In this document: positions 6,246 to 60,445 of the stretch, piece after piece
Layout of the letters: each line of letters begins with the position of its first letter
Numbering within the stretch: position 1 is the first letter of the stretch
The notes under the pieces: generated by a model
Seen by the model: only the letters and a program-made list of their open reading frames with translations
Told to the model about the DNA's origin: nothing
The model's database searches: none
Program-made: the position numbers and the translations under genes
DNA from: Myxococcota bacterium
GTDB taxonomy: Bacteria; Myxococcota_A; UBA9160; UBA6930
Direction: 5' to 3'
NCBI GenBank assembly: GCA_965223705.1
Contig: OZ245015.1
Location: forward strand, 704,001 to 768,000
Length of the DNA stretch: 64,000 bases

Positions 6246-8687
<2,442 letters not shown>

Positions 8688-8721
8688 CGAATCTTCGGAA
8701 TCCGCCTGCGTCGGAGAGTGC

Positions 8722-9435
8722 ATGCCCGCAAGAACCCGCGCCACTTCGCTCGCGGCCGCGTTGCTCGTCGGCCTGCTCCTCGGCATCGGTGCCCAGGGCG
8801 GCGGCGAGACGGATCGGGAGCACCCCGCACGCAACGGTTCGGGCTGCGCAGAATCGCTGTCGGTACGCGTCCAGGCGTACTACGACCGGATTCGCGGGCT
8901 CCGCGCAGATTTCGAACAAGTGAGCCGCAGCGTGGCGCTCGGCGCCGGAGAGGCCGCGACCCAATCCTCGAGGGGCAACGTCACGCTCGCCAAACCCGGG
9001 AGAATGCGGTGGGAATACACCGGGCCCGAGCCGAGTCTCGTCGTCAGCGACGGAACCACGTTGTGGATCTACGATCCGGAAGCCTCGGAAGTCCAGGTTC
9101 TTCCGATGACGGGAGACAGCCTGAGCGGGGCGGGACTTCAATTCCTCTTCGGCGAGGGCAAGCTCACGGACGCGTTTCAGATTGCGGCCCGGCGTTGCGA
9201 TACGGATCGGCCGGAGCTTGTACTGACGCCCAAGGACGAAGCGCTCTTCGAAAGGATCATCCTCGAGGTCGATCCCGAAACCGGAGTGGCCCGCGGGACC
9301 GAGATTCGAGACCTCTTCGGAAACCGCACGGAGCTCGTGCTTCACGACATCGAGACCGACGGCGACTTCGACGACGGAATGTTTCGGTTCGAGCCGCCCG
9401 AGGGCACCCGAGTCCACCGACTCGAAGGGCCGTAG
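8722..9435 (+). CDS. lolA: Outer-membrane lipoprotein carrier LolA
   Basis: Signal peptide; ADFEQ, KPGRMRWEY and VSDGTTLWIYDP motifs; conserved ftsK-lolA adjacency; GGAG RBS before ATG 8722. Confidence 0.9.
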   Translation: MPARTRATSLAAALLVGLLLGIGAQGGGETDREHPARNGSGCAESLSVRVQAYYDRIRGLRADFEQVSRSVALGAGEAATQSSRGNVTLAKPGRMRWEYTGPEPSLVVSDGTTLWIYDPEASEVQVLPMTGDSLSGAGLQFLFGEGKLTDAFQIAARRCDTDRPELVLTPKDEALFERIILEVDPETGVARGTEIRDLFGNRTELVLHDIETDGDFDDGMFRFEPPEGTRVHRLEGP

Positions 9436-9694
9436 GCCGACGCCTTTGCGCGCCCATTAAAGGGAACACCGCTTCCGGGATTGCGGTGGAACCGCGTACT
9501 CCACCCGAGAAAAGCGTCAAAATCGTGTCACGGCGTCGGCAGACTTGCATCTCGAAACGGCATGCGCGGCGCAATTGACGGTCCAACCCGGCGCTTTTTC
9601 AGGAAAGCGATTCCCCGCGCAGGGGCGCGGTGCGAAATCATCAAAAAGTGTTTTATTTTCGAATAGTTAGCTTGCCCGCGGGGGCCCCGTCCGG

Positions 9695-9722
9695 TTGACA
9701 GCCGGGGGGCGTCTGATATTCT
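9695..9722 (+). promoter_or_regulatory. Putative sigma70 promoter, TTGACA-N16-TATTCT with extended -10 TG
   Basis: Perfect TTGACA at 9695-9700, TG at 9714-9715 and TATTCT at 9717-9722, inside an AT-rich island of a GC-rich genome. Confidence 0.55.
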
Positions 9723-9738
9723 TAGTTTCCTAAAAGTA

Positions 9739-9770
9739 GAGAAAAAACAAGCACTTGCGAGTTTTTTCTC
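9739..9770. repeat. Perfect 10-bp inverted repeat overlapping an IHF-like site
   Basis: GAGAAAAAAC (9739-9748) and GTTTTTTCTC (9761-9770). AAACAAGCACTTG (9745-9757) is one mismatch from WATCAANNNNTTR. Confidence 0.7.
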
Positions 9771-10043
9771 GTGTCCGGGCACCCGACGGAGAGGGTAGGA
9801 CGTCGGAAGCGGCGAAGGAGGCGCGCAACGAGAGCCGCTTCGCGACCCGCTTTTGGCTCCTTTTGTCGAGAAATGGCCGGGTGTCGAAGGGAATTGTTTG
9901 TTAGACCGCCCGAACCAAGCCTGGATGGTCGGAAAACGGCACGCAACGGCCTCCGAAAGCCCGCGCGGTCGGTGCACTCTTGGTGAGGGTTATTTCGTCC
10001 GGTTGGAGCCGGCAGCCATAGAGCCCACCCTCTTCCGCTCACG

Positions 10044-10059
10044 CGGCACGGGCTTTGCA
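10044..10059 (+). promoter_or_regulatory. sigma54 (RpoN) -24/-12 promoter upstream of arc
   Basis: CGGCACG-GGCT-TTGCA matches TGGCACG-N4-TTGCW with exact GG-N10-GC spacing, about 60 bp before the arc ATG. Confidence 0.7.
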
Positions 10060-10117
10060 CTAGTGGGCTGCGGGAAACTCGTCCCAGGTGGCGGGTTCGA
10101 AAAGGGGAGAGGGCGCG

Positions 10118-11977
10118 ATGAGCGAGTTCGATTCGGATTCTTCAGACGGACGAGGAGGCCCCTCGGGCCGGAGATTTGGGCGCGGCGATCGCCGTCCCGT
10201 CCCGGTATCTCCCCGCGGCGAGCGGGGGGGCGACGGGGAGCGTGAGCGAGCCATGGCCCGGTCTTTCCAAGAAGAAATTGAAGACCTCCGGGAAGCGATG
10301 CGCTTCTTCGGGGGCGATTCAGTGGAGTTTCGCCGCCGCTTAGACCGCGTGCTGGCCGAGCACGAGGCGCTGCGCCGTCGCTTCCACGTGTCTCGCGAAC
10401 AGCTGACCGACGCCGAGCGGCAGAACGAGAAGCTCGTGCACACGTTGCAGGAAGCGAAGCAGCAGATCGAGCTGCTGAAAGAGGAAGTCGACAAGCTCTG
10501 CGCGCCGCCGAACACTTACGGCGTCTACCAGCGCTCGAACAAGAACGGAACGGTTGAAATCGTCGTGGACGGGCGCCACATGCGCGTCAATGCCCATCCC
10601 GATCTCGATGTCTCGACGCTCGAAGAGGGCCAACTGGTCGTCCTGAACGAAGCGTTCAACGTCGTCGAGTCGTCGGGCTTCACGCAACGCGGTGAGATCG
10701 CGGCGGTTGTCGAGTTGCTCGGCGACGGTCGGGCGATTGTCCTCGGGCACACGGACGACGAACGCGTCGTGACCCTCGCGTCACCTCTGCGAGCCGGCAA
10801 GTTGAAGGCCGGGGACAACATCCTGTTCGACCCGCGCACGCAGTACGCGTTCGAGAAGATGCCGAAGTCCGCGGCCGAAGAAGTCGCGCTGGAAGAGATT
10901 CCGGACGTGACGTATTCGAACATCGGCGGACTCGACGAGCAGGTCGAGATCCTGCGCGACGCGATCGAGCTTCCCTACATGCACCCGGAAGTGTTCCTCG
11001 AGCACAAGCTGTCGCCTCCGAAGGGCATCCTGCTCTACGGCCCTCCGGGCTGCGGCAAGACGCTCATCGCAAAGGCCGTCGCGAACAGTCTCGCGAAGAG
11101 CATCGAGAAGCGTACAGGGCGGGCCACGCCGGCTTACTTCCTCAACGTGAAGGGCCCGGAGCTTCTGAACAAGTACGTCGGCGAGACCGAGCACAAGATT
11201 CGCGAGGTCTTCCGACGCGCCCGCGAGAAAGCGAACGAAGACGTCCCGGTCGTGATCTTCTTCGACGAGATGGATTCGCTCTTCCGCATGCGCGGTTCGG
11301 GCATCTCCTCCGATATGGAGGCGACGGTTGTCGCACAGTTCCTGTCGGAGATCGACGGCGTCGAATCGCTGAAGAACGTGATCGTGATCGGCGCGAGCAA
11401 CAGGCAGGATCTCATCGATCCGGCGGTGCTCCGCCCGGGACGCCTCGACCTGAAGGTCAAGGTCAATCGCCCGGACGAAGCTGCCGCGCGCGACATCTTC
11501 TCGAAGTACCTGACGACGGATCTTCCGTTCCACGCGGATGCGGAGCGCCACTACGGCAGCGATCCGGCGAAGATCGTCGACGGCATGCTCGCCGAGGTCA
11601 TCGAGGGCATGTACTCGACCGGAGAAGAGAACAAGTTCCTCGAGGTGACCTACGCCAAGGGCGAGCGTGAGATCTTCTACTTCAAGGATTTCTCGAGCGG
11701 CGCAATGATCGAAAACATCGTGGCGCGCGCCAAGAAGAAGGCCGTGAAGCGGGCGATCGACCACGACGAGCGTGGTATCAAGGCCGACGATCTCCACGAA
11801 GCGGTGCGGGAAGAGTTCAAAGAGAACGAAGATCTTCCGAACACCACCAACCCCGACGATTGGGCGCGGATCTCCGGACGCAAGGGCGAGCGCATCATCA
11901 ACGTGCGCACGCTCATCACCGGGATCAGCCGCAAAGAGCGCTCGATCGAGAACATCGAGTCGGGGCAATACGTCTAG
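10118..11977 (+). CDS. arc: Proteasome-associated AAA ATPase ARC/Mpa
   Basis: N-terminal coiled coil, LCAPP plus OB-type interdomain, Walker A GPPGCGKT, ELLNKYVGETE, Walker B FFDEMD, ENEDLPNTTNPDDWARISG, C-terminal GQYV (GQYL-type); GGAGAGG RBS before ATG 10118. Confidence 0.97.
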   Translation: MSEFDSDSSDGRGGPSGRRFGRGDRRPVPVSPRGERGGDGERERAMARSFQEEIEDLREAMRFFGGDSVEFRRRLDRVLAEHEALRRRFHVSREQLTDAERQNEKLVHTLQEAKQQIELLKEEVDKLCAPPNTYGVYQRSNKNGTVEIVVDGRHMRVNAHPDLDVSTLEEGQLVVLNEAFNVVESSGFTQRGEIAAVVELLGDGRAIVLGHTDDERVVTLASPLRAGKLKAGDNILFDPRTQYAFEKMPKSAAEEVALEEIPDVTYSNIGGLDEQVEILRDAIELPYMHPEVFLEHKLSPPKGILLYGPPGCGKTLIAKAVANSLAKSIEKRTGRATPAYFLNVKGPELLNKYVGETEHKIREVFRRAREKANEDVPVVIFFDEMDSLFRMRGSGISSDMEATVVAQFLSEIDGVESLKNVIVIGASNRQDLIDPAVLRPGRLDLKVKVNRPDEAAARDIFSKYLTTDLPFHADAERHYGSDPAKIVDGMLAEVIEGMYSTGEENKFLEVTYAKGEREIFYFKDFSSGAMIENIVARAKKKAVKRAIDHDERGIKADDLHEAVREEFKENEDLPNTTNPDDWARISGRKGERIINVRTLITGISRKERSIENIESGQYV

Positions 11978-11980
11978 GGC

Positions 11981-12002
11981 CCCGGCCCTCCGGAGGGCCG
12001 GG
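11981..12002. repeat. Perfect 22-bp palindrome/stem-loop between arc and dop
   Basis: CCCGGCCCTCCGGAGGGCCGGG is its own reverse complement. Confidence 0.85.
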
Positions 12003-12031
12003 AGCTTTGCAACCGCGATTGAGGAGCCTGG

Positions 12032-13516
12032 ATGGCGATACCCAAAGTGATGGGTACGGAGATCGAATACGGAATCACCGTTCAAAACGACAGTGACTTC
12101 GATCCCATTTCCAGCTGCGTCCTTTTGGTCAACGCCTACCGCGAAGACCACGAAGGGCAGATCCTCTGGGATTACGATCAGGAAAATCCGCTAGCAGACG
12201 CCCGCGGTTTTCAGGTCGACGGCGAGAAGTACACGCCGAACCAGCAAGAGAACATCGCTCGCAACAAGACGCTGGTGAACGGCGCGCGCTACTACGTCGA
12301 CCACGCGCATCCGGAGTACTCCTGCCCGGAAGTGACGAACGCCCGGGATCTCGTGATCCACGAGAAGGCCGGCGAGCGCATCCTCGAGTTGTCTCGCCGC
12401 GAAGCGAACGCATTGCTCCCCGCCGGTACGCAGATGTTGATCTACAAGAACAACAGCGACCGGAAGGGCAACAGCTACGGGTCACACGAGAACTACTTGA
12501 TGGACCGTCGCACGTCCTTCAAGCAGATCGTCGAGTACCTGATGCCGTTCTTCGTAAGCCGTCAGGTCTACACCGGCGCGGGAAAGGTCGGCAGCGAAAA
12601 CCGCGCGCAGCCTTGCGACTACCAGACGAGCCAGCGATCGGATTTCTTCGAAACCGAAGTTGCGCTCGACACGATGGTGAAACGACCCATCATCAACACG
12701 CGCGACGAGCCGCACGCCGACCGCGAAAAGTATCGCCGCCTGCACGTCATCGTCGGCGACTCGAACATGAGCGAGTACACGATCTTCCTGCGCAACGGAG
12801 CGACGGCCCTGGTGCTCGAGATGATCGAAGACGGAGCGATCGACCGCGATTTCTCCCTGCGGGACCCCGTGCGCGCGATCAAGGAAGTGTCTCATGACAT
12901 CGCCTGCAAGCGCCCGCTGGAGTTGCAGAGCGGGCGCAAGCTCACCGCGGTTGAGATGCAAAAGGAGTATCTCGAGCTCGCCGAGCGCCACTTCGCGAGC
13001 CGGGAAATCTCCGAAGAGCAGCGCGACGTATTGAACAAATGGGCCTACGTGCTCGACACGCTATCGGGCGAGCCACGCGATCTGGCCCGTGAGATCGACT
13101 GGATCATCAAGCTCCAGATGATCGAAGGGTTCATGGACCGGAAGGGTCTCGACTGGGAATCGAGCCAGGTACAGATGCTCGACCTGCAATACCACGATCT
13201 CCGACCGAACAAGGGGCTGTACTACCTTCTCGAGAGGCAGGACAAGGTCGAGCGCATCGTGACGGACGACGAGATCACACGGGCGATCACACGTCCGCCC
13301 GAAGACACTCGGGCGTATTTCCGCGGAGAATGCCTGCGCAAATATGGAAGCGAGGTCTTCGGCGTGAACTGGGATTCGATTTCTTTCGGAATCGGCGACG
13401 ATCCCATCAAGCGCGTGCTGATGGCAGAACCCCTCAAGGGTTCGCGGCAACACGTCGAGGAACTATTGGCGACTTCGCCGACTGCGGCGGAGTTGGTCGT
13501 TAACCTCCGAGCCTAG
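12032..13516 (+). CDS. dop: Pup deamidase/depupylase Dop
   Basis: MGTEIEYG, Dop-loop WDY...PLADARGF, NGARYYVDHAHPEYS, YKNNSD.KG.SYGSHENYLM, PPEDTRAYFRG, NWDS; lies immediately upstream of pup. Confidence 0.95.
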   Translation: MAIPKVMGTEIEYGITVQNDSDFDPISSCVLLVNAYREDHEGQILWDYDQENPLADARGFQVDGEKYTPNQQENIARNKTLVNGARYYVDHAHPEYSCPEVTNARDLVIHEKAGERILELSRREANALLPAGTQMLIYKNNSDRKGNSYGSHENYLMDRRTSFKQIVEYLMPFFVSRQVYTGAGKVGSENRAQPCDYQTSQRSDFFETEVALDTMVKRPIINTRDEPHADREKYRRLHVIVGDSNMSEYTIFLRNGATALVLEMIEDGAIDRDFSLRDPVRAIKEVSHDIACKRPLELQSGRKLTAVEMQKEYLELAERHFASREISEEQRDVLNKWAYVLDTLSGEPRDLAREIDWIIKLQMIEGFMDRKGLDWESSQVQMLDLQYHDLRPNKGLYYLLERQDKVERIVTDDEITRAITRPPEDTRAYFRGECLRKYGSEVFGVNWDSISFGIGDDPIKRVLMAEPLKGSRQHVEELLATSPTAAELVVNLRA

Positions 13517-13543
13517 AACGATGGGTCCGGACGGGAGAGAGTG

Positions 13544-13816
13544 ATGAGTCGAAAATTCCGAGCGGAACACAGCGCCAACGCGAACGACGCAGCGTTTGGA
13601 TTCGTCCGCGCCGCCGAGAGCACCCAGAAGCAGAAACAAGGCGGCGGTGGCGAAGGCGGCGACGGTGAGAAGAGCGGCGATGGGGCCCAGAAGCTCGCCA
13701 AGAAGGGCGAAGAGCTCAAAGAAGAAATGGACGCGCTGGTAGACGAGATCGACGAAGTCCTCGAAGAAAACGCCGAGGAGTTCGTGAAGAACTACGTCCA
13801 GCGCGGCGGCGAATAA
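13544..13816 (+). CDS. pup: Prokaryotic ubiquitin-like protein Pup (GGE-terminated, N-terminally extended)
   Basis: C-terminal DALVDEIDEVLEENAEEFVKNYVQRGGE is the Pup signature; lies between dop and prcB; GGGAGA RBS before GTG 13541/ATG 13544. Confidence 0.95.
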   Translation: MSRKFRAEHSANANDAAFGFVRAAESTQKQKQGGGGEGGDGEKSGDGAQKLAKKGEELKEEMDALVDEIDEVLEENAEEFVKNYVQRGGE

Positions 13817-13838
13817 CAGCAACCAGCGAAGTACAGCG

Positions 13839-13865
13839 GCGGGGTTCGCGGAAGCGAAACCCCGC
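13839..13865 (+). other. GNRA-capped stem-loop between pup and prcB
   Basis: GCGGGGTTCGC-GGAA-GCGAAACCCCGC: 11-bp stem with one bulged A and no U-tract. Confidence 0.7.
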
Positions 13866-13900
13866 GACGGCGGTATCGCGCGACGGCGGAGGGGACGTCA

Positions 13901-14698
13901 GTGCGCTTCCGGTTTCACGATGGCTATTTCGGATCGAGCTTTTCCGAGCTCGTCGATTCGGAATGTCCCAATCTGCGACCCGATTTCGACAAATGGAAAG
14001 ACAACGCCGGGACGCTGAGTTCCGAGGGCACGACGGTGCTGGCGCTCCGGTACGAATCCGGCGTGCTGATGGCGGGCGATCGATTGGCGACCATGGGAAA
14101 CCTCGTCGCTTCCCGCGAGATCCAGAAAGTCTATGCAACCGATCCGCACTCGCTGATGGCGATCGCAGGCGCGGCAGGGCCCGCGATCGACATGGCGCGA
14201 CTCCTCCGGATTCAACTCGAACACTACGAAAAGATCGAAGGCGCCCCGCTCGAGCTCGAAGGTAAGGCCAACACGCTCGCAGGGCTGATCAAACAGCACC
14301 TGCCAATGGCGATGCAGGGTCTCGTGGTTGTTCCGCTCTTCGCGGGCTTCGACCACCGACGGCAACTGGGCCGCCTGTGGCGCTACGAGCCGACCGGCGG
14401 TCGCTACGAAGAGCGCAACTTTGACAGCGTCGGTTCCGGATCGATGTTCGCGCGCGAGTCGCTGAAGAAGTCGTATCACCAACAGCCGACGCGGGAGGAC
14501 GCGCTGCGGATGGCGGTCGAGGCGCTCACCGATGCCGCTGACGAAGATACGGCGACCGGCGGTGTCGATCCCATCCGCGGCATCTATCCGTTGATGAAAA
14601 TCTGTGATCGCGACGGCATCACGGATATCGCCGACGAGGAAGTCGGCGCGATTTACGAAACGATCGTCTCCGCGCGCCGGGACCGAGGAGTTCGCTAG
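13901..14698 (+). CDS. prcB: 20S proteasome beta subunit with 43-aa propeptide
   Basis: SSF propeptide motif, G|TTVLAL processing site (Thr1 codon at 14030), AGDR (Asp17), QKV (Lys33), GSGS, DxATGG; GGAGGGG RBS. Confidence 0.97.
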   Translation: MRFRFHDGYFGSSFSELVDSECPNLRPDFDKWKDNAGTLSSEGTTVLALRYESGVLMAGDRLATMGNLVASREIQKVYATDPHSLMAIAGAAGPAIDMARLLRIQLEHYEKIEGAPLELEGKANTLAGLIKQHLPMAMQGLVVVPLFAGFDHRRQLGRLWRYEPTGGRYEERNFDSVGSGSMFARESLKKSYHQQPTREDALRMAVEALTDAADEDTATGGVDPIRGIYPLMKICDRDGITDIADEEVGAIYETIVSARRDRGVR

Positions 14699-14700
14699 CC

Positions 14701-15399
14701 ATGTCGCTTCCGTTCTACGTCTCGCCGGAGCAGATGACGCAAGACAAGGCGGAGTTCGCGCGCAAAGGCATCGCGCGCGGGCGCTCCCTCGTTACGCTCG
14801 AATTCGCCGACGGCATTCTGCTCGTCGCGGAGAACCCGCTCAATCTCTCGAAGATCGGCGAAATCTACGATCGCATCGGGTTTGCCGGCGTCGGCAAGTA
14901 CAGCGAGTTCGATCGGCTCCGCCAGATGGGGATCCAGTACGCGGACATTCAGGGGTTCCGTTTCAGTCGGGAAGACGTGCGCGCGAAAGCCCTTGCGAAC
15001 CTGTATTCCCAGACCATCGGCGACGAGTTCAACCGCTCGATCAAACCGCTCGAGGTGGAAATCGTGGTCGCGGAAGTCGGCGACCCCGAAAGCCCCCACC
15101 ACGCCGCGAACTCGCTCTACAACGTCAATTTCGACGGCAGTATTCTCGAACTCGAAGGTCACTGTGTGATCGGTGGCGCGAACGAGAACGTCAAAAGGCA
15201 CGTAGAGACGAACTATCAGGAAAATATGCCCCTAGGGGAAGCTCTTCGTCTGGGCCGGGATGCACTACAGCGTGCAGAGAACGGCACCACGGACCTCCCC
15301 GCGGAGAGCCTCGAGGTTTGCTTGTTGGACCAGAACCGGCCCGGCCGAAAGTTTCGCCGACTTTCTGCCGATGAAGTTCGGGTTACGCTGGATCGGTAG
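14701..15399 (+). CDS. prcA: 20S proteasome alpha subunit
   Basis: MSLPFYVSPEQ...ARKGIARGRS N-terminus, KIGEIYDRIGFAGVGKYSEF, KPLEVEI, R.FRRL end, all typical of bacterial PrcA. Confidence 0.96.
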   Translation: MSLPFYVSPEQMTQDKAEFARKGIARGRSLVTLEFADGILLVAENPLNLSKIGEIYDRIGFAGVGKYSEFDRLRQMGIQYADIQGFRFSREDVRAKALANLYSQTIGDEFNRSIKPLEVEIVVAEVGDPESPHHAANSLYNVNFDGSILELEGHCVIGGANENVKRHVETNYQENMPLGEALRLGRDALQRAENGTTDLPAESLEVCLLDQNRPGRKFRRLSADEVRVTLDR

Positions 15400-15416
15400 G
15401 GAAGGCCGGGTCGGTC

Positions 15417-16823
15417 GTGCAGAAGCGCATTTTCGGAGTCGAAACCGAATACGGCATCATTTTCACGCCGGAGGGTCGTAAGACACTCCCGGTGGAGAAG
15501 GCGATCCGCTTCCTCTTCGAAAAGCTGATCACCACCGAGCACTTCCTCAACGTATTCCTCGAGAACGGCGCCAGGTTCTACCAGGACACCGGGTGCCACC
15601 CCGAATACGCGACGCCCGAGTGCGCGGCGCCGCGCCAGCTCATCGTCTACGACAAGGCCGGAGAGCGGATTCTCGAAGATCTTCAGAACTACGCCGAAGA
15701 GAAGATCCGGGAAGAGCGCATCGCCGGGAAGCTCTCCATCTTCAAGAACAACACGGATTTCGTGGGCAACAGCTACGGTTGCCACGAGAACTACCTGGTC
15801 GATCGCGACGTCGACTTCTACTACCTGGCCGAGCAGCTGATCCCGTTTCTCGTGACCCGGCAGGTGTACTCAGGCGCCGGCAAGGTCTTCCAGACGCAAG
15901 ACGGCGTTCATTACTGCGTCAGCCAGCGCGCGCAGCACATCTACCAGAAGATCTCCGGAACGACGACGAACGATCGTTCGATCATCAACACCCGGGACGA
16001 ACCTCACGCCGATCGCGAGAAGTATCGGCGCCTTCACGTGATCGTCGGCGACTCCAACATGTCGGAGTACACGAACTTCCTGAAGATCGGCGCTTGCGCC
16101 GTTGTCCTCCAGATGATCGAGGACAACTACATCAACAAGGACTTCACCCTGCGCAACCCGGTGAAGGCCATCAAAGACATCTCCCACGACACGACGTGCA
16201 AGCGGAAGCTGCGCCTCGACAACGGTCGCGAGTACTCACCCATCGAGATTCAGCGCGAATACTGTGAGATGGCGCTCAAGTACATCGAGGACTACCCGGT
16301 CAGCGATGAGCTCCGACAGTCCGTGTCGATGTGGGAGCACGTGCTCGATTGTCTCGAGGACGATCCCGACAAGCTCGATCGCAAGGTCGATTGGGTCATC
16401 AAGCGCAAGATGATTCAGTCTGTGATCGACAAGCGCGGCATGCGCTGGTCCGATCCTCGCATCTTCATGCTCGATCTTCAGTACCACGACATTCGCGTGA
16501 ATCGAGGCCTCTACTACCTCCTCGAGCGACGCGGCGCCGTGGACCGCATTCTGAACGACGACGAGATCATCAAAGCGAAGACCGAGCCGCCGCCGGACAC
16601 ACGCGCGAGGATGCGCGGCGAGTTCATCAAGCTCGCTCGCCAGAACGGAATTCAGTACGACCTCGACTGGTCGAATATCCGGCTCGGAAACTTGTTGAAC
16701 GTACGCGTGATTTGCAACAACCCCTTCGAGACCGACACGGAAAAAGTGGCCGAGCTCGTGAAGACGATCCAGAAGACCAACCTGCGCAAGACGAGCCTTT
16801 CGAAGCTCGTCATTCAATCGTAG
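15417..16823 (+). CDS. pafA: Pup-protein ligase PafA
   Basis: RIFGVETEYG, FLENGARFYQD.GCHPEYATPEC, FKNNTD.VGNSYGCHENYL, DLQYHDI, PPPDTRARMRGEFI and DW motifs; lacks the Dop loop. Confidence 0.95.
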   Translation: MQKRIFGVETEYGIIFTPEGRKTLPVEKAIRFLFEKLITTEHFLNVFLENGARFYQDTGCHPEYATPECAAPRQLIVYDKAGERILEDLQNYAEEKIREERIAGKLSIFKNNTDFVGNSYGCHENYLVDRDVDFYYLAEQLIPFLVTRQVYSGAGKVFQTQDGVHYCVSQRAQHIYQKISGTTTNDRSIINTRDEPHADREKYRRLHVIVGDSNMSEYTNFLKIGACAVVLQMIEDNYINKDFTLRNPVKAIKDISHDTTCKRKLRLDNGREYSPIEIQREYCEMALKYIEDYPVSDELRQSVSMWEHVLDCLEDDPDKLDRKVDWVIKRKMIQSVIDKRGMRWSDPRIFMLDLQYHDIRVNRGLYYLLERRGAVDRILNDDEIIKAKTEPPPDTRARMRGEFIKLARQNGIQYDLDWSNIRLGNLLNVRVICNNPFETDTEKVAELVKTIQKTNLRKTSLSKLVIQS

Positions 16824-16835
16824 GGCGCACCGACC

Positions 16836-17213
16836 ATGCCGGTGAGTGACGGTGGCGGGCATCTGCGGGCGGTTCCGGAAGGCGACGGTCCCGCCGAGGC
16901 TCCGTCGGCTCCTCCTCGCGCGTCCGGTTCCGGTGGCCGCGCGCGTATCGTGTTGCTGTCCGCCCTCGCCTTGGGACTCCTCGTCGCAGGCTTCGGTTGG
17001 TTTACCTCGCAGCAGCGCGCCACCGCCCTTCAGGCCAAGCTCGACGCGGTGAGCGGGCAGCTCCGCGACAGCGAGAACGCGCTCCGTGCGACGACTGAGG
17101 AGCTCGCGGCTCGTAGGTCTCACTTCGCGCGGGTGAAGAGCTCGGTCGACGCGTTGGCCGTCGAGCTCGACGGGCTCCGATCGGTCATCCGAGAAGAGCC
17201 GAAACGTCCGTAG
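16836..17213 (+). CDS. Hypothetical bitopic membrane protein with C-terminal coiled coil
   Basis: Starts 12 bp after pafA; one TM helix (IVLLSALALGLLVAGFGWF) followed by ~65 aa of heptad-like helix. Confidence 0.7.
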   Translation: MPVSDGGGHLRAVPEGDGPAEAPSAPPRASGSGGRARIVLLSALALGLLVAGFGWFTSQQRATALQAKLDAVSGQLRDSENALRATTEELAARRSHFARVKSSVDALAVELDGLRSVIREEPKRP

Positions 17214-17416
17214 CTCCCGCGTTCTCGGCCTCTCTAAGCGCAACCCCTGCGCAGTCTCTCATCAGAAACACGCAGTTGTAACGCTCTCGCGAGAGTCTTC
17301 CACGCTCACGCAAGAATTCGTCTAGGCACTGCAAATTGCTACTCAGCACAATGCGAAGCACGGCCGATACATCCTCCGGAGTCTAAGCCCCCATCTCCGT
17401 GCGGAGGATGACTGCG

Positions 17417-18451
17417 ATGTTGTTCGACCCGATCGCAGGAAGAATGTCGAGCGATCTAGCGATCGATCTAGGGACCGCGAATACGTTGGTCTACGTTCGC
17501 GGCAAAGGGCTCATTTGTTCAGAGCCTTCGGTTGTCGCCGTCACCGACGATGAATCGGGCCGCCAGAAGGTGCTCGCCGTCGGTCACGAGGCGAAGGAAA
17601 TGCTCGGGCGAACGCCCGGGGGCATCCAGGCGATCCGCCCGATCAAAGACGGTGTGATCGCGGACTTCGAAATTACCGAGGCGATGCTCCGCTACTTCAT
17701 CCAGCGAGCGCACAATCGTCGCAAGCTGGTCCGCCCCCGAATCGTTATCTGCGTGCCGCCGTGTATCACGAGCGTCGAGAAGCGCGCTGTTCGCGAATCG
17801 GCGTTGTCCGCGGGAGCGCGCGAGGTGTTTCTCATCGAAGAGCCCATGGCCGCGGCGATCGGAGCCGGGCTCGACGTGACGGCTCCGACGGGCAACATGG
17901 TCGTCGATATCGGTGGCGGCACCACGGATGTCGCCGTGATCTCGTTGTCGGGAATCGTGACGTCACGATCGATCCGCTGCGGCGGCGACTCGATGGACGA
18001 AGCGATCATCAACTACGTGAAGCGCAAGTACAACATGCTGATCGGCGAACGGACCGCCGAGAACATCAAGATGACCATCGCGACGGCCTCCGCCACGTCG
18101 AAGACCGAGACGATGGAGATCAAAGGCCGCGATCTGGTGGCCGGCATCCCGAAAGTCGTTGTCACGACGAGCGACGAGATTCGAGAATCTCTCGTCGAGC
18201 CGATCAGCGCCATCGTAGAGACCGTGCATCTGGCGCTCGAACGAACGCCGCCCGAGCTCGCCGCCGACATCGTCGATCGCGGGATCATGTTGGTCGGTGG
18301 TGGCTCGCTCCTGCGCGACCTCGATCAGGTGCTGCGCCAAGAGACGAAGCTACCGATCCTGCGCAGCGAGGATCCTTTCACCGCCGTAGTCCACGGTGCC
18401 GGTGTGGCCCTCGATAACCTCGAGCTGCTCCGAGACGTCGCGATCCGCTAG
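17417..18451 (+). CDS. mreB: Actin-like rod shape-determining protein MreB
   Basis: DLAIDLGTANTL, DGVIADF, IEEPMAAAIGAG, DIGGGTT, TPPELAADI; GGAGG RBS before ATG 17417. Confidence 0.97.
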   Translation: MLFDPIAGRMSSDLAIDLGTANTLVYVRGKGLICSEPSVVAVTDDESGRQKVLAVGHEAKEMLGRTPGGIQAIRPIKDGVIADFEITEAMLRYFIQRAHNRRKLVRPRIVICVPPCITSVEKRAVRESALSAGAREVFLIEEPMAAAIGAGLDVTAPTGNMVVDIGGGTTDVAVISLSGIVTSRSIRCGGDSMDEAIINYVKRKYNMLIGERTAENIKMTIATASATSKTETMEIKGRDLVAGIPKVVVTTSDEIRESLVEPISAIVETVHLALERTPPELAADIVDRGIMLVGGGSLLRDLDQVLRQETKLPILRSEDPFTAVVHGAGVALDNLELLRDVAIR

Positions 18452-18469
18452 GCGCTAGCGTTCGCCGAT

Positions 18470-19465
18470 CTATCGGCCGCGCTGAAAGCGGTCGACGGCT
18501 CGCGCGTGCTCGCTGTACGTCTTCGAGAAGACGTGGCTTCCGTCTCCGCGGGACACAAAGAAGAGGAACTCCGAGTCCTCCGGCTCGACGACCGCGCGCA
18601 ACGCGGCGGCGCCCGGGTTCGCGATCGGACCCGGCGGCAGCCCTTTGATCTGGTAGGTGTTGTAGGGGTTCGTGTCGTCGTTTAGATGCGCTCGCGTCAA
18701 GTTCCCGTCGAAGTTCTCGACGCCGTAGATGACCGTCGGATCCGTCTGTAGACGCATTCCCTTGGCGAGACGATTGAGGAACACCGAGGCGATGCGCGGT
18801 CTCTCGTGCGCGACACCGGTTTCTTTTTCGATAATCGAGGCGAGCGTCACGACGTCGTGCATCGAAAGGCCGGCTTTCTCAGACGCGTCTTCGATCGTTC
18901 GCCACGTGGCGAGGAACTGCTCCCCGAACGCCTCGAGGACGGCGCGCGTGCCGAGGCCACGCGCGAGGCGATAGGTCTCGGGGAACAAGTAACCCTCGAA
19001 ACTGTCGCCCTCGAGACCCAGCTCGTTCAGCCAGGTCGTGTTGGCAACGCCTTCGAGGAAGTCGTCGCGATCGGCCAACCCGGCTTCGTCCAGGCGAACG
19101 GCAATTTCGGTCGCGCGCAAGCCTTCGGGGATGCTGACGGTGCGCATGCGCACCCAGCCCTCGGTGAGCCGTTCGAGAATTTGGTGCGCCGATTCGCGCG
19201 GAGATAGCTCGTACTCGCCGGCCCGCAGTTCGCTGCCGAGACCCCGGTAGCGGGCGAGCCATTCAAACGCGAATGCGTCGACGAGCCCGGCGCTTTCGAG
19301 CTGCGCAGCCACTGCGCCGAGGGTGACGCCTTCCGCCACCTCGAAGTCGACCGACGGGCCGTCGGGATCGCGGGGGCCGAGCGCGATCTTGACCCAAAGG
19401 GCTGCAGCCGCTGCGCCGAAGACCGCAACGGTCGAGATGCCCAGTACGAACCAACGCCACTTCAT
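18470..19465 (-). CDS. mltG: Endolytic transglycosylase MltG
   Basis: N-terminal TM, IPEG, EGYLFPETY, LASIIEKET, LQTDPTV, YNTY...GLPPGPIANPG; start overlaps the ruvX stop. Confidence 0.95.
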   Translation of the reverse strand: MKWRWFVLGISTVAVFGAAAAALWVKIALGPRDPDGPSVDFEVAEGVTLGAVAAQLESAGLVDAFAFEWLARYRGLGSELRAGEYELSPRESAHQILERLTEGWVRMRTVSIPEGLRATEIAVRLDEAGLADRDDFLEGVANTTWLNELGLEGDSFEGYLFPETYRLARGLGTRAVLEAFGEQFLATWRTIEDASEKAGLSMHDVVTLASIIEKETGVAHERPRIASVFLNRLAKGMRLQTDPTVIYGVENFDGNLTRAHLNDDTNPYNTYQIKGLPPGPIANPGAAALRAVVEPEDSEFLFFVSRGDGSHVFSKTYSEHARAVDRFQRGR

Positions 19466-58395: not shown

Positions 58396-59030
58396 GCGTT
58401 GTCCCAAGCGCTCGCCAGGGCGCGCACCGCGGCCCCGGGGTCGTCGGCTCCGGCGACGGCGGATATCACGGCGAAGCCCGATGCACCGGCCTCGCGGACC
58501 GCGGCGACCCGGTTGAGGTCCACGCCGCCGATCGCGATCACGGGAATCCCGGCCGCGGCGCCGACCGCTTCCCGCAAGGCCGCAACCCCGCGCTCGTCGT
58601 ACGCCGAATGCTTCGATCGGGTCCCAAACACCGGACCGAAACCGAGGTAGTCGACGCACTCCTTCACCGACCGCGCAACGTGCGAGATCAAGTGGGTCGA
58701 ACGCCCGACGGCGAGTGATTTCCGCGCTTCCGGGGGGATGGCCTCCGGGGACAGGTCATCCTGACCGAGGTGGACCGCGTCGGCCTGGGCGGCCAAAGCG
58801 ATATCGAAGCGGTCGTTGACGACAAATCGTGCGTCGTGTGCTCGCGCGGCCCTTTGAATCGATCTCGCCCAGTCGAGTACTTCGGCGTCGCGCGCATGTT
58901 TCGCGCGCAGCTGAACGACCCGGGCTCCGTTCTCGAGCGCGATCTCCGCTTGCAAGGCGGGGCCCATCGACCAACGCGGATTGTCATCCACGAGGACGTG
59001 AAGGCCTTCGAAGCCCGTCCCGGTTCTCAC
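58392..59030 (-). CDS. thiE: Thiamine phosphate synthase
   Basis: VQLRAK, VNDRFD, VHLGQDD, GRSTH, GPVFGT.SK, AIGG; GTG start overlaps the ntrC stop. Confidence 0.93.
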   Translation of the reverse strand: MRTGTGFEGLHVLVDDNPRWSMGPALQAEIALENGARVVQLRAKHARDAEVLDWARSIQRAARAHDARFVVNDRFDIALAAQADAVHLGQDDLSPEAIPPEARKSLAVGRSTHLISHVARSVKECVDYLGFGPVFGTRSKHSAYDERGVAALREAVGAAAGIPVIAIGGVDLNRVAAVREAGASGFAVISAVAGADDPGAAVRALASAWDNA

Positions 59031-60445
59031 GATGCGTCGGATCGGTCGATGCCGAGCGCCAGGATCTTCTTGCGCAACGTGTTGCGATTGATGCCCAGCA
59101 GCGCCGCCGCCTGGATCTGGTTCCCCTCGGTTCGCGCGAGCGCGCACTCGATCATCGGCTTTTCGACGCGCGAAAGAAGCTCACGATAAATGTCTTCGGG
59201 GTGTTCATCTCTCAACGCCCGCTCGGTTTCTTCAGTCACGAGCGCCTCCAGTGTCGCGGCCTGGGCGGGTTCGCGTTCGTTCGTCAGGAACGCGAAGTCG
59301 TCGGGCGCGAGAACGTCCGTCGAGGCGAGCACGACGGCACGCTTGATGGCGTTTTCCAGCTCGCGCACGTTTCCGGGCCACGGGAGCTCCCGCAGGAACG
59401 CAATCGATTCGTCTGACAGGTGCTTTTCGCGAGACGAAAACTCCGCGCCATAACGCGTGACGAAGTAGTTCGCGAGGTTCTCGATGTCTTCGCGCCGTTG
59501 TCGCAGCGGCGGGAGGCCGATGGGAACTACGCGAAGTCGATACAAGAGATCTTCGCGAAAACTGCCGTCGCGTACTGCGGCGTCGAGGTCGCGGTGAGTT
59601 GCCGCGATAATTCTGACGTCGACATGCGCTGCCATCTTCCCGCCGACCGGCGTGACCTCGCCGCTCTGGAGGACACGCAACAATTTCGCTTGGAGCTCAA
59701 GGGGCATATCGCCGATCTCGTCGAGAAACAGCGTGCCTCCGGACGCCTCGCGAAAGCGCCCCTCTCGCCGGTCCACCGCTCCGGTGAATGCACCGCGTTC
59801 GTGGCCGAACAGTTCGCTCTCGAGCAGCTCACTGGGAATCGCCGCGGCATTGATCGCGACGAACGGTCGATCGTGCCGCTCGCCCGCGGCGTGGATGGCG
59901 CGCGCGACGAGTTCTTTGCCCGTGCCGCTTTCGCCGGTGACGAGCACTGAGACGTCTGAGCGCGCGACGCGCCCGATCGTCTTGAAGACCTCGAGTAGCG
60001 CCGGACTGCGGCCGACGATCCGTTCGCCGCTCTTCTCGCTGACTTCCCGGCGAAGGGAGCGAACTTCGTTGTTCAAGTCCCGAGCGCGAAGGACCTTGCC
60101 GACCAGCAGGGAAACTTCGTCCATGCCGAAGGGCTTGACGAGGTAGTCAAAGGCTCCTCGTTTCATCGCCTCAACGGCGTTCTCGAAGGTATTTTGGGCG
60201 GTGATCACAACGATCGGAAACGTCCCGCCGGCCGAGCGCACCCGCTCCAAGACCTCGAGGCCCGAGAGCCCCGGCATGCGGATATCGAGAAACGCCATGT
60301 CGAAATCCTGCGAGGAAAGTACTTCGAGCGCGGACTCGCCGTCGGACGCTTCGACGACGTCCATCGCCTGGGCCTCGAGAATTTCGCGGAGCACGAAGCG
60401 GATACTGTCTTCATCGTCGGCGATGAGAACACGACCGGAGGCCAT
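59027..60445 (-). CDS. ntrC: NtrC-family sigma54-dependent response regulator
   Basis: Receiver domain, GESGTGKE, GAFTGA, FLDEIGD, WPGNVREL, HTH GNQIQAAALLGINRNTLRKK; dusB-ntrB-ntrC synteny. Confidence 0.85.
   Translation of the reverse strand: MASGRVLIADDEDSIRFVLREILEAQAMDVVEASDGESALEVLSSQDFDMAFLDIRMPGLSGLEVLERVRSAGGTFPIVVITAQNTFENAVEAMKRGAFDYLVKPFGMDEVSLLVGKVLRARDLNNEVRSLRREVSEKSGERIVGRSPALLEVFKTIGRVARSDVSVLVTGESGTGKELVARAIHAAGERHDRPFVAINAAAIPSELLESELFGHERGAFTGAVDRREGRFREASGGTLFLDEIGDMPLELQAKLLRVLQSGEVTPVGGKMAAHVDVRIIAATHRDLDAAVRDGSFREDLLYRLRVVPIGLPPLRQRREDIENLANYFVTRYGAEFSSREKHLSDESIAFLRELPWPGNVRELENAIKRAVVLASTDVLAPDDFAFLTNEREPAQAATLEALVTEETERALRDEHPEDIYRELLSRVEKPMIECALARTEGNQIQAAALLGINRNTLRKKILALGIDRSDAS

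Follow-up and report, generated by a model that had tools for sequence, protein, structure and literature searches.

A complete Pup-proteasome operon conserved across a class of uncultured diderm Myxococcota

Introduction

The closest described system to the one reported here is the Pup-proteasome of Actinobacteria, as represented by Mycobacterium tuberculosis and Rhodococcus. The window under study, by which we mean the whole analysed stretch of 64,000 nucleotides (C1:704001-768000 of a 4.56 Mb genome in two contigs, 95% complete and 0.6% contaminated), carries an operon, arc-dop-pup-prcB-prcA-pafA, with the same six components in the same gene order, and the catalytic residues, the Pup C-terminus and the ARC tail of the actinobacterial system are kept in it. 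The operon differs from its actinobacterial counterpart in its diderm Myxococcota host, in the contiguity of all six genes with pafA directly after prcA, in the lack of pafBC/tat genes next to pafA, which the first-pass annotation of this DNA had correctly recorded for the window, and in a putative sigma-54-type promoter ahead of arc. Its PafA also stands apart, being 41-48% identical to the labelled actinobacterial representatives and falling outside their group in three quick trees. As suggested by our comparative sequence analysis, the operon very probably encodes a working Pup-proteasome system that is native to a class of uncultured diderm Myxococcota. This is a known system extended to a new host group and not a new system or mechanism; it is of a textbook kind, and the annotation models already recognize all of its genes. 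The new detail is modest and concerns the sigma-54 promoter, the co-distribution of a PAC2-family gene, and nearest relatives that belong to diderm candidate phyla. What makes the case worth describing is that a whole Gram-negative class of Myxococcota keeps a complete Pup-proteasome as a core trait, with a PafA as conserved as MreB, which offers a diderm setting in which to study the purpose of pupylation beyond Actinobacteria, its regulation and the origin of the system.

A second comparison is with UBact, in which a small tag with a C-terminal Glu or Gln is encoded beside PafA/Dop-like and proteasome genes in diderms, and in which the tag ends in R[ST]G[EQ]. This conjugation system of Gram-negative bacteria is reportedly that of Lehmann et al. 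2017. The window system resembles UBact in its small tag with a C-terminal Glu, in the PafA/Dop-like and proteasome genes and in its diderm host, whereas the window tag ends in QRGGE, unlike the R[ST]G[EQ] of UBact. Identity with UBact was rejected, given that only the Pup models (PF05639 and TIGR03687) match the tag at E up to 0.001 and that its end is RGGE; the tag had likewise been set apart from UBact at first pass.

A third comparison is with the Pup ligase of the Plesiocystis/Rhodopirellula type, which the accessible part of one paper describes as carrying an insert of four transmembrane segments and having no linked proteasome genes (Iyer, Burroughs and Aravind 2008, PMC2588565). It shares the Pup_ligase family and the myxobacterial lineage with the window system; the window ligases differ from it in being of ordinary length and in lying inside a proteasome operon. 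A membrane-anchored ligase of this type was rejected as an identity for them, as the two proteins of 468 and 494 aa are encoded with proteasome genes and are the only two Pup_ligase matches in the genome (PafA and Dop).

In two papers (PMC7947786, PMC2588565) pupylation is taken to be characteristic of Actinobacteria and Nitrospirae, other occurrences being only sporadic. The same sources, as far as their text is available, noted Pup in deltaproteobacteria in 2008, without proteasome genes (PMC2588565), and Dop/PafA homologues in Proteobacteria in 2020 (PMC7947786). For GTDB class UBA9160 of Myxococcota_A, the class of this genome, the name Vahlivitia is proposed in a 2026 preprint (10.64898/2026.07.10.737566), the accessible main text of which makes no mention of the proteasome or Pup. 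Our literature search, subscription papers and supplements not being covered, found no description of a class-wide Pup-proteasome in this lineage. The earlier claim that the system had not been characterized in the lineage stands in so far as no paper on the lineage's system was found, and has to be tempered by the deltaproteobacterial Pup and the proteobacterial Dop/PafA noted before.

Results

The six genes are back-to-back open reading frames (ORFs) on the + strand that span 10088-16823, each scoring above its own NCBIfam equivalog cut-off, and Pfam assigns all six proteins in agreement with NCBIfam. Six contiguous same-strand genes had been proposed at first pass, and each of them passed; chance cannot account for six equivalog-level matches in canonical order. 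The gene of the proteasomal AAA+ ATPase, arc/mpa (10118-11977, +), reached 735.6 bits with TIGR03689 against a cut-off of 504.75. Its longest ORF runs from 10088 to 11977, and the ATG at 10118, a start conserved among relatives, is taken as the start codon because the ribosome-binding site and the first codons, ATGAGCGAGTTCGA, are common to these relatives. The purine-rich ribosome-binding site was read directly from the sequence at 10104-10112 (+), and a GAGGAGAGG-like block occurs at the same distance ahead of ATGAGCGAG in most anchored relatives. The ARC protein is laid out as a low-complexity N-terminus, a coiled coil, two OB domains, an AAA module and a C-terminal GQYV; its Pfam domains are PF17758 and PF16450, both of them proteasomal-ATPase OB domains, and PF00004 (AAA), and its residues 77-623 align to PDB entry 7px9, 'Proteasome-associated ATPase', with 647 bits.

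The depupylase/deamidase gene dop (12032-13516, +) scored 572.4 bits with TIGR03688 (cut-off 492.3) and 577.6 bits with PF03136, and fell under the PafA cut-off. Dop aligns end to end with PDB 4b0r, 'Deamidase-depupylase Dop' (525 bits), and this alignment takes in an N-terminal insert at residues 30-75, the Dop loop, that is missing from PafA matches. The Pup ligase gene pafA (15417-16823, +) scored 557.2 bits with TIGR03686 (cut-off 551.3) and 508.5 bits with PF03136, and residues 2-450 of its product align to PDB 4b0t, 'Pup--protein ligase', with 361 bits. On the Dop model PafA reached 419 bits, under the cut-off of 492.3. In all three trees described below PafA joins the PafA representatives and Dop the Dop representatives, and the two paralogues are thus told apart by reciprocal model scores, by the insert found in Dop only and by their tree positions.

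Between dop and pafA lie the genes of the tag and of the 20S core. The pup gene (13541-13816, +, with an alternative ATG start at 13544) encodes a tag of 90-91 aa that scored 55.6 bits with TIGR03687 (cut-off 41.45) and 66.8 bits with PF05639 (cut-off 27) and ends in YVQRGGE. The 20S beta subunit gene prcB (13901-14698, +) reached 297 bits with TIGR03690 against a cut-off of 191.9, and its product matched PDB 1q5r, 'proteasome beta-type subunit 1', with 227 bits. Mature PDB chains, e.g., 2fhg, align to PrcB from query residue 44 onward, which corresponds to a propeptide of 43 residues and a Thr1 codon at 14030-14032. The 20S alpha subunit gene prcA (14701-15399, +), which starts 2 nt past the prcB stop codon, scored 278.3 bits with TIGR03691 (cut-off 139.05), and PrcA also matches PF00227.

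The key motifs listed at first pass were all present in the window. ARC carries the Walker A motif GPPGCGKT, the Walker B residues DE and the tail GQYV, the corresponding tail motif of Mpa being GQYL; PrcB has Gly43/Thr44 with Asp at +16 and Lys at +32 (Thr1/Asp17/Lys33); the active-site Asp is kept as residue 57 in PafA and residue 90 in Dop; and the Dop loop and the GGE end of Pup were confirmed as well. The same residues were followed in relatives, taken as the 80 best pafA loci in a species-representative genome collection. In PrcB, Thr1/Asp17/Lys33 showed no exception among 71 loci and Gly-1 a single one (70 of 71), while PafA Asp57 was kept in 79 of 80. The ARC Walker A Lys and Walker B Asp-Glu were kept in 62 of 63 loci, the exception being the frameshifted locus L011, and the ARC tail reads GQY[LV] in all 60 loci where the ARC C-terminus was found. 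Locus L011, from a long-read metagenome-assembled genome, carries several frameshifts in arc and dop that are probably sequencing errors.

Pup was found in 71 of the 80 loci, the nine without it being eight loci cut by contig ends and locus L080. Its last ~30 residues are near-invariant in these 71 loci, with a GGE end in 48 and a GGQ end in 23, and therefore the deamidase role of Dop would be needed in part of the class and not in the genome studied here. Protein identity among the 80 loci amounted to 80-92% for PafA, 68-84% for ARC, 65-82% for Dop, 50-73% for PrcB and 47-84% for PrcA, compared with 70-91% for MreB and 34-52% for LolA; the conservation of PafA is thus similar to that of MreB. 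Because the window and its relatives alike retain the catalytic residues, and PafA is 80-92% identical among them, the system is probably functional, as had been suggested at first pass.

Along with the conserved residues, the distribution of the system marks it as a trait of the class. Within the order, 40 of the 41 sampled genomes gave Pup_ligase matches (12 families, 26 genera). In a phylum sample of 401 genomes evenly drawn (78 of the window's class and 323 others; PafA threshold E up to 1e-20), PafA was found in 86 genomes, including 76 of the 78 of the class, typically as a PafA and Dop pair; outside the class, 10 of 323 genomes gave a weak single PafA hit, with E of 1e-21 to 1e-42. The gene order ftsK-lolA-arc-dop-pup-prcB-prcA-pafA-(variable)-mreB-yceG recurs across the 80 loci. 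Counting loci with a hit that covers at least half of the query, PafA was matched in 80 of 80, PrcA in 78, PrcB in 73, MreB in 65, ARC in 62, and LolA and YceG in 57 each; in the count for Dop, 80 of 80, ~12 are cross-hits to pafA from truncated loci. Most of the gene absences among these loci arise because contig ends cut them. The operon is native to the chromosome, at one fixed place between lolA and mreB.

The host and the assembly were assessed as well. The record titles of the 80 loci name Myxococcota in 28 cases, Myxococcales/Myxococcaceae in 9 and Deltaproteobacteria in 31 (68 of 80 together); 8 of the rest are Spirochaet-labelled, one of these with an isolate name containing 'MYXO', and 4 carry other labels, and all 80 appear to be uncultured. 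These titles, together with LolA and BamD, support the Myxococcota-like diderm host proposed at first pass. Contigs from Logan, built by another assembler out of four runs of a single sample that is probably the source, fill 30 of 30 bins of the region 8000-19000, and both operon borders are bridged, by Logan contigs 8034-10429 and 16145-17704. Logan depth is even, at ~11-14 in the two deepest runs, so that the check for a chimeric assembly at the operon borders found no chimera. The summed contig depth rises 2- to 4-fold at 10936-11669, 15707-16073 and 17909-18275 (runs X1 and X2), probably because contigs of co-sampled relatives map to these most conserved parts of arc, pafA and mreB. At third codon positions the GC of the operon, 0.75-0.84, does not differ from that of the flanks, and the low GC at its second positions is due to amino-acid content. 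No transposase or integrase families were found among the 51 window ORFs scanned against Pfam, as the first-pass annotation had also noted. Its description of the operon as old and integrated likewise holds, on account of the two-contig genome, the bridged borders, the recurrent FtsK-LolA-operon-MreB-YceG order and the presence in 76 of 78 class genomes.

An exhaustive search of 1.84 billion cluster representatives returned 6462 PafA relatives. The best full-length PafA outside the query's own cluster, P0002, is 63% identical to the window PafA, the next ones are 44-48% identical, and the labelled Actinomycetota representatives are 41-48% identical. An organism name was carried by 10 of the 30 clusters looked up: among the PafA clusters these include Candidatus Moduliflexus flocculans (P0002), Ilumatobacteraceae/Actinomycetota (P0004), Candidatus Tectomicrobia (P0010), Dermatophilus (P0023), Gemmatimonadota (P0048) and Nitrospinota (P0054), and among the Dop clusters Candidatus Entotheonellia (P0012) and Lawsonella (P0114). 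One Dop tip is labelled Woesearchaeota archaeon, probably through a binning error. The Moduliflexus PafA and Entotheonellia Dop clusters, the nearest relatives outside the class, come from other phyla and consist of annotated sequences that are uncharacterized.

Three quick maximum-likelihood trees were computed (111 rows under LG+G4, 59 rows under LG+C20+F+G4 and 59 rows under LG+G4). In these trees the Myxococcota PafAs form one clade (SH-aLRT 99, 100 and 99) that is sister to P0002 (99, 92 and 98) and is not part of the group in which the two labelled Actinomycetota PafAs fall. A single clade is likewise recovered for the Myxococcota Dops (99, 97 and 98), with P0012 as its sister (93, 91 and 87), and the PafA and Dop subtrees show the same branching order in the 111-row tree. 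In an AU test, a tree uniting Myxococcota, Moduliflexus and a 51-row clade of actinobacterial type was not rejected (p-AU 0.75), and this constrained tree scored 35 log-likelihood units above the quick free tree, which makes the backbone of the first quick tree unreliable. The tree comparison called for at first pass therefore separates the clade from labelled Actinomycetota and places it beside Moduliflexus, while the deep order of PafA clades is not settled by the quick trees. Judged from the sequences available, the nearest-relative set is made up of other diderm candidate phyla.

A candidate promoter was found ahead of the operon. A sigma-54-type -24/-12 element, CGGCACGGGCTTTGCA, lies at 10044-10059 (+), ~60 nt before the arc start codon. 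The sigma-54 consensus is TGGCAC-N5-TTGCW, and CGGCACGGGCTTTGCA is the window's sole match to this consensus, with one mismatch. Among the relatives, 37 of 58 loci have an exact GGCAC-N5-TTGC core and 53 have it with at most one mismatch, the variants being mostly GGCAT or GGTAC, and the element is usually positioned 50-80 nt before arc. Exact cores number 35 within the 141 nt preceding arc (8.2 kb when summed over the 58 loci) and 4 in the remaining 1.85 Mb of the same loci, both strands counted, which amounts to a ~2000-fold enrichment before arc. The element is the only conserved block in the lolA-arc spacer, which measures 500-900 nt among loci; blastn and tblastx of the 682-nt spacer of the window against the 80 loci found nothing conserved besides it. 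The genome encodes rpoN and 21 genes of the sigma-54 activator family.

Two further features were seen in this neighbourhood. The lolA-arc spacer also holds a sigma-70-like TTGACA-16-TATTCT at 9695-9722, in a genome of 65% GC, followed by an AT-rich inverted repeat, GAGAAAAAAC...GTTTTTTCTC, at 9739-9770; neither the site nor the repeat was seen in the same spacer of relatives. An NtrC-type activator gene (receiver, Sigma54_activat and HTH_8 domains; 59027-60445, -), one of these 21, lies 42 kb downstream of the operon.

Outside the window, the genome carries a PAC2-family gene (G000:C1:854166-854942, equal to L089:5167-5943) that encodes 258 aa, scores 177.7 bits and sits just after genes of a histidine kinase and an OmpR-type regulator. 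In the phylum sample, a PAC2 gene turned up in 58 of the 78 class genomes and in none of the 323 others. PAC2 orthologues near actinobacterial Pup-proteasome loci have been inferred, in the accessible part of Iyer et al. 2008 (PMC2588565), to be proteasome assembly chaperones. The distribution that PAC2 shares with the operon fits such an assembly role, without proving it.

Discussion

The reading that we favour, a working Pup-proteasome native to this class, draws on the gene content, the intact catalytic residues, the class-wide conservation, the fixed synteny and the conserved promoter element observed above, whereas every biochemical step of the mechanism is inferred from homology. The six genes arc-dop-pup-prcB-prcA-pafA would form one transcription unit read from a sigma-54-dependent promoter, and such a promoter would require an enhancer-binding activator. 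With ATP, PafA would link the side-chain carboxylate of the C-terminal Glu of Pup to lysines of substrates; Pup being already Glu-ended here, no deamidation would be needed. Pup would then be bound by the N-terminal coiled coil of the ARC hexamer and the substrate unfolded, with the GQYV tail of ARC predicted to dock on the alpha ring of the 20S core. PrcB would cleave its own propeptide, exposing Thr1, and subsequently degrade the substrate. Dop, by analogy with its homologues, would take Pup off and, in the relatives whose Pup ends in GGQ, would deamidate Pup as well, and the unlinked PAC2-family protein may aid assembly of the 20S core. The operon was presumably gained once by the class ancestor; what can safely be concluded is that the copies in the class share one origin, that they have been inherited vertically since, and that they were not acquired recently from Actinobacteria.

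Several observations weigh against this reading or parts of it. PafA lies only ~6 bits above its own equivalog cut-off (557.2 against 551.3). No PafA was found in two class genomes, G023 (91% complete) and G228 (92% complete), and in locus L080 a pafA 83% identical to that of the window stands alone beside yceG, none of the other five genes being present in the preceding 6.9 kb. GC content within the window is lowest over the operon, at 0.597-0.631 against up to 0.697 elsewhere. As regards control, the sigma-54 match taken in the window alone is not significant, since one or more matches arise in 44 of 100 shuffles, and 5 of the 58 loci are without the core at up to one mismatch; no activator gene adjoins the operon, the nearest being that at 59027-60445. 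Co-transcription is suggested by the short gene spacing and by the lack of a terminator signal above shuffles, the terminator scan having returned 6 sites where shuffles predict 8.5. Among the 23 runs returned for 9900-16900, none was listed as an RNA run. No PAC2 gene was found in 20 of the 78 class genomes, and the bacterial role of PAC2 is itself a matter of inference in the accessible part of Iyer et al. 2008 (PMC2588565).

Of the alternative explanations, the one concerning function holds that the system serves mainly reversible, regulatory pupylation and depupylation and not degradation, or that the 20S core works mostly independently of Pup. Some actinobacteria pupylate without a 20S core, and the control genome of Corynebacterium glutamicum accordingly matches Pup_ligase and not the Proteasome family; the genome studied here also has an HslV-like third gene of the Proteasome family. 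Pup/ligase pairs without proteasome genes are described for Plesiocystis and Rhodopirellula in the available text of Iyer et al. 2008 (PMC2588565). Against this, ARC, PrcB and PrcA are encoded in the same operon and keep intact active sites and the docking tail class-wide, and it is difficult to account for such co-operonic, conserved genes if Pup does not act together with the 20S core. We consider this alternative unlikely.

A further alternative concerns origin, namely that the system already existed in the ancestor of the phylum, or of a wider diderm group, with later loss from the other classes, instead of being gained once by the class ancestor. Its nearest relatives indeed lie in diderm candidate phyla (the Moduliflexus PafA and the Entotheonellia Dop, with Tectomicrobia, Gemmatimonadota and Nitrospinota nearby), and weak PafA-family hits were obtained in ten genomes of the phylum sample that belong to other classes. 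These hits outside the class, 10 of 323, are nonetheless weak only (E 1e-21 to 1e-42), PAC2 occurs in none of the 323 genomes, few tree tips are labelled and the backbone is unsettled, and we regard ancestral presence with loss elsewhere as improbable.

That the operon is foreign to the chromosome, through an assembly chimera, a binning error or a recent actinobacterial transfer, is highly improbable and already contradicted: although pupylation is textbook biology of Actinobacteria, the GC of the operon is the lowest in the window, and transfer from Actinobacteria to other phyla has been proposed in the accessible text of PMC7947786, the genome consists of two contigs, both borders are bridged by an independent assembler at even depth, the lolA-operon-mreB order recurs in relatives with the system in 76 of 78 class genomes, third-position GC matches the flanks with no mobile-element families in 51 ORFs, the nearest outside PafA is that of Moduliflexus (63%) and not a labelled Actinomycetota one (41-48%), and the PafA clade lies outside the labelled Actinomycetota group in three trees.

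Beyond a native system with a single gain in the class, a wider proposal may be put forward tentatively, although we consider it doubtful: the Pup-proteasome would not be an actinobacterial invention that was occasionally exported, but would include a separate old diderm branch, and in this class it would be a core function under the control of sigma-54 and an enhancer-binding activator, and would have brought with it a PAC2-type assembly factor. Such a branch would hold this class, Moduliflexus, Entotheonellia/Tectomicrobia, Gemmatimonadota and Nitrospinota. If this were true, proteasomal degradation would be tied to a specific signal, e.g., starvation or development, in a Gram-negative cell.

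Other features of the genome and the window

Several further genes related to pupylation or proteolysis were searched for in the genome. A third match to the Proteasome family (G000:C1:1077736-1078251) is an ORF of 182 aa, of HslV-like size, and the genome thus probably has both HslV and a 20S core. A search of the genome for BPA (PF10759) gave no match; the control genomes were silent too, and this result is therefore no evidence of absence. The WYL domain occurs in a single gene far from the operon, so that there is no pafBC-like tandem pair near the operon.

A third Pup_ligase paralogue, of 642 aa, is encoded in a genome of the same family (G014, L090:4007-5935), and similar proteins occur in ~10 relatives. 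Its match to Pup_ligase positions 1-440 extends over 578 residues, a SHESYW block is followed by a hydrophobic insert of ~140 aa, and its gene lies between rhomboid and peptidase C26 genes. This paralogue, which is not in the window's genome, resembles the membrane-anchored ligase of Plesiocystis.

Upstream of the operon, family matches identified ftsK (6246-8687) and lolA (8656-9435), the latter followed by the 682-nt spacer and arc; downstream, mreB (17399-18451) is followed by yceG on the - strand and then by a HEAT-repeat gene, cinA, recA and alaS. The first-pass view that outer-membrane genes flank the operon is correct for lolA, directly upstream with ftsK, and has to be corrected for bamD (YfiO, PF13525; 36495-37286, -), which lies 19.7 kb from the operon and is not a flank. 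An Rfam search of 8500-18000 at E up to 0.1 gave no match. Directly after pafA lies an ORF of 125 aa (16836-17213, +), which has a coding-like third-position GC (0.78) and is poorly conserved, with a match in 2 of the 80 loci and weak tblastx similarity; it was rejected as a member of the system on account of this poor conservation and of its having no Pfam match. The spacer between pafA and mreB, in which this ORF is located, ranges from ~0.2 kb to 4.6 kb among the loci.

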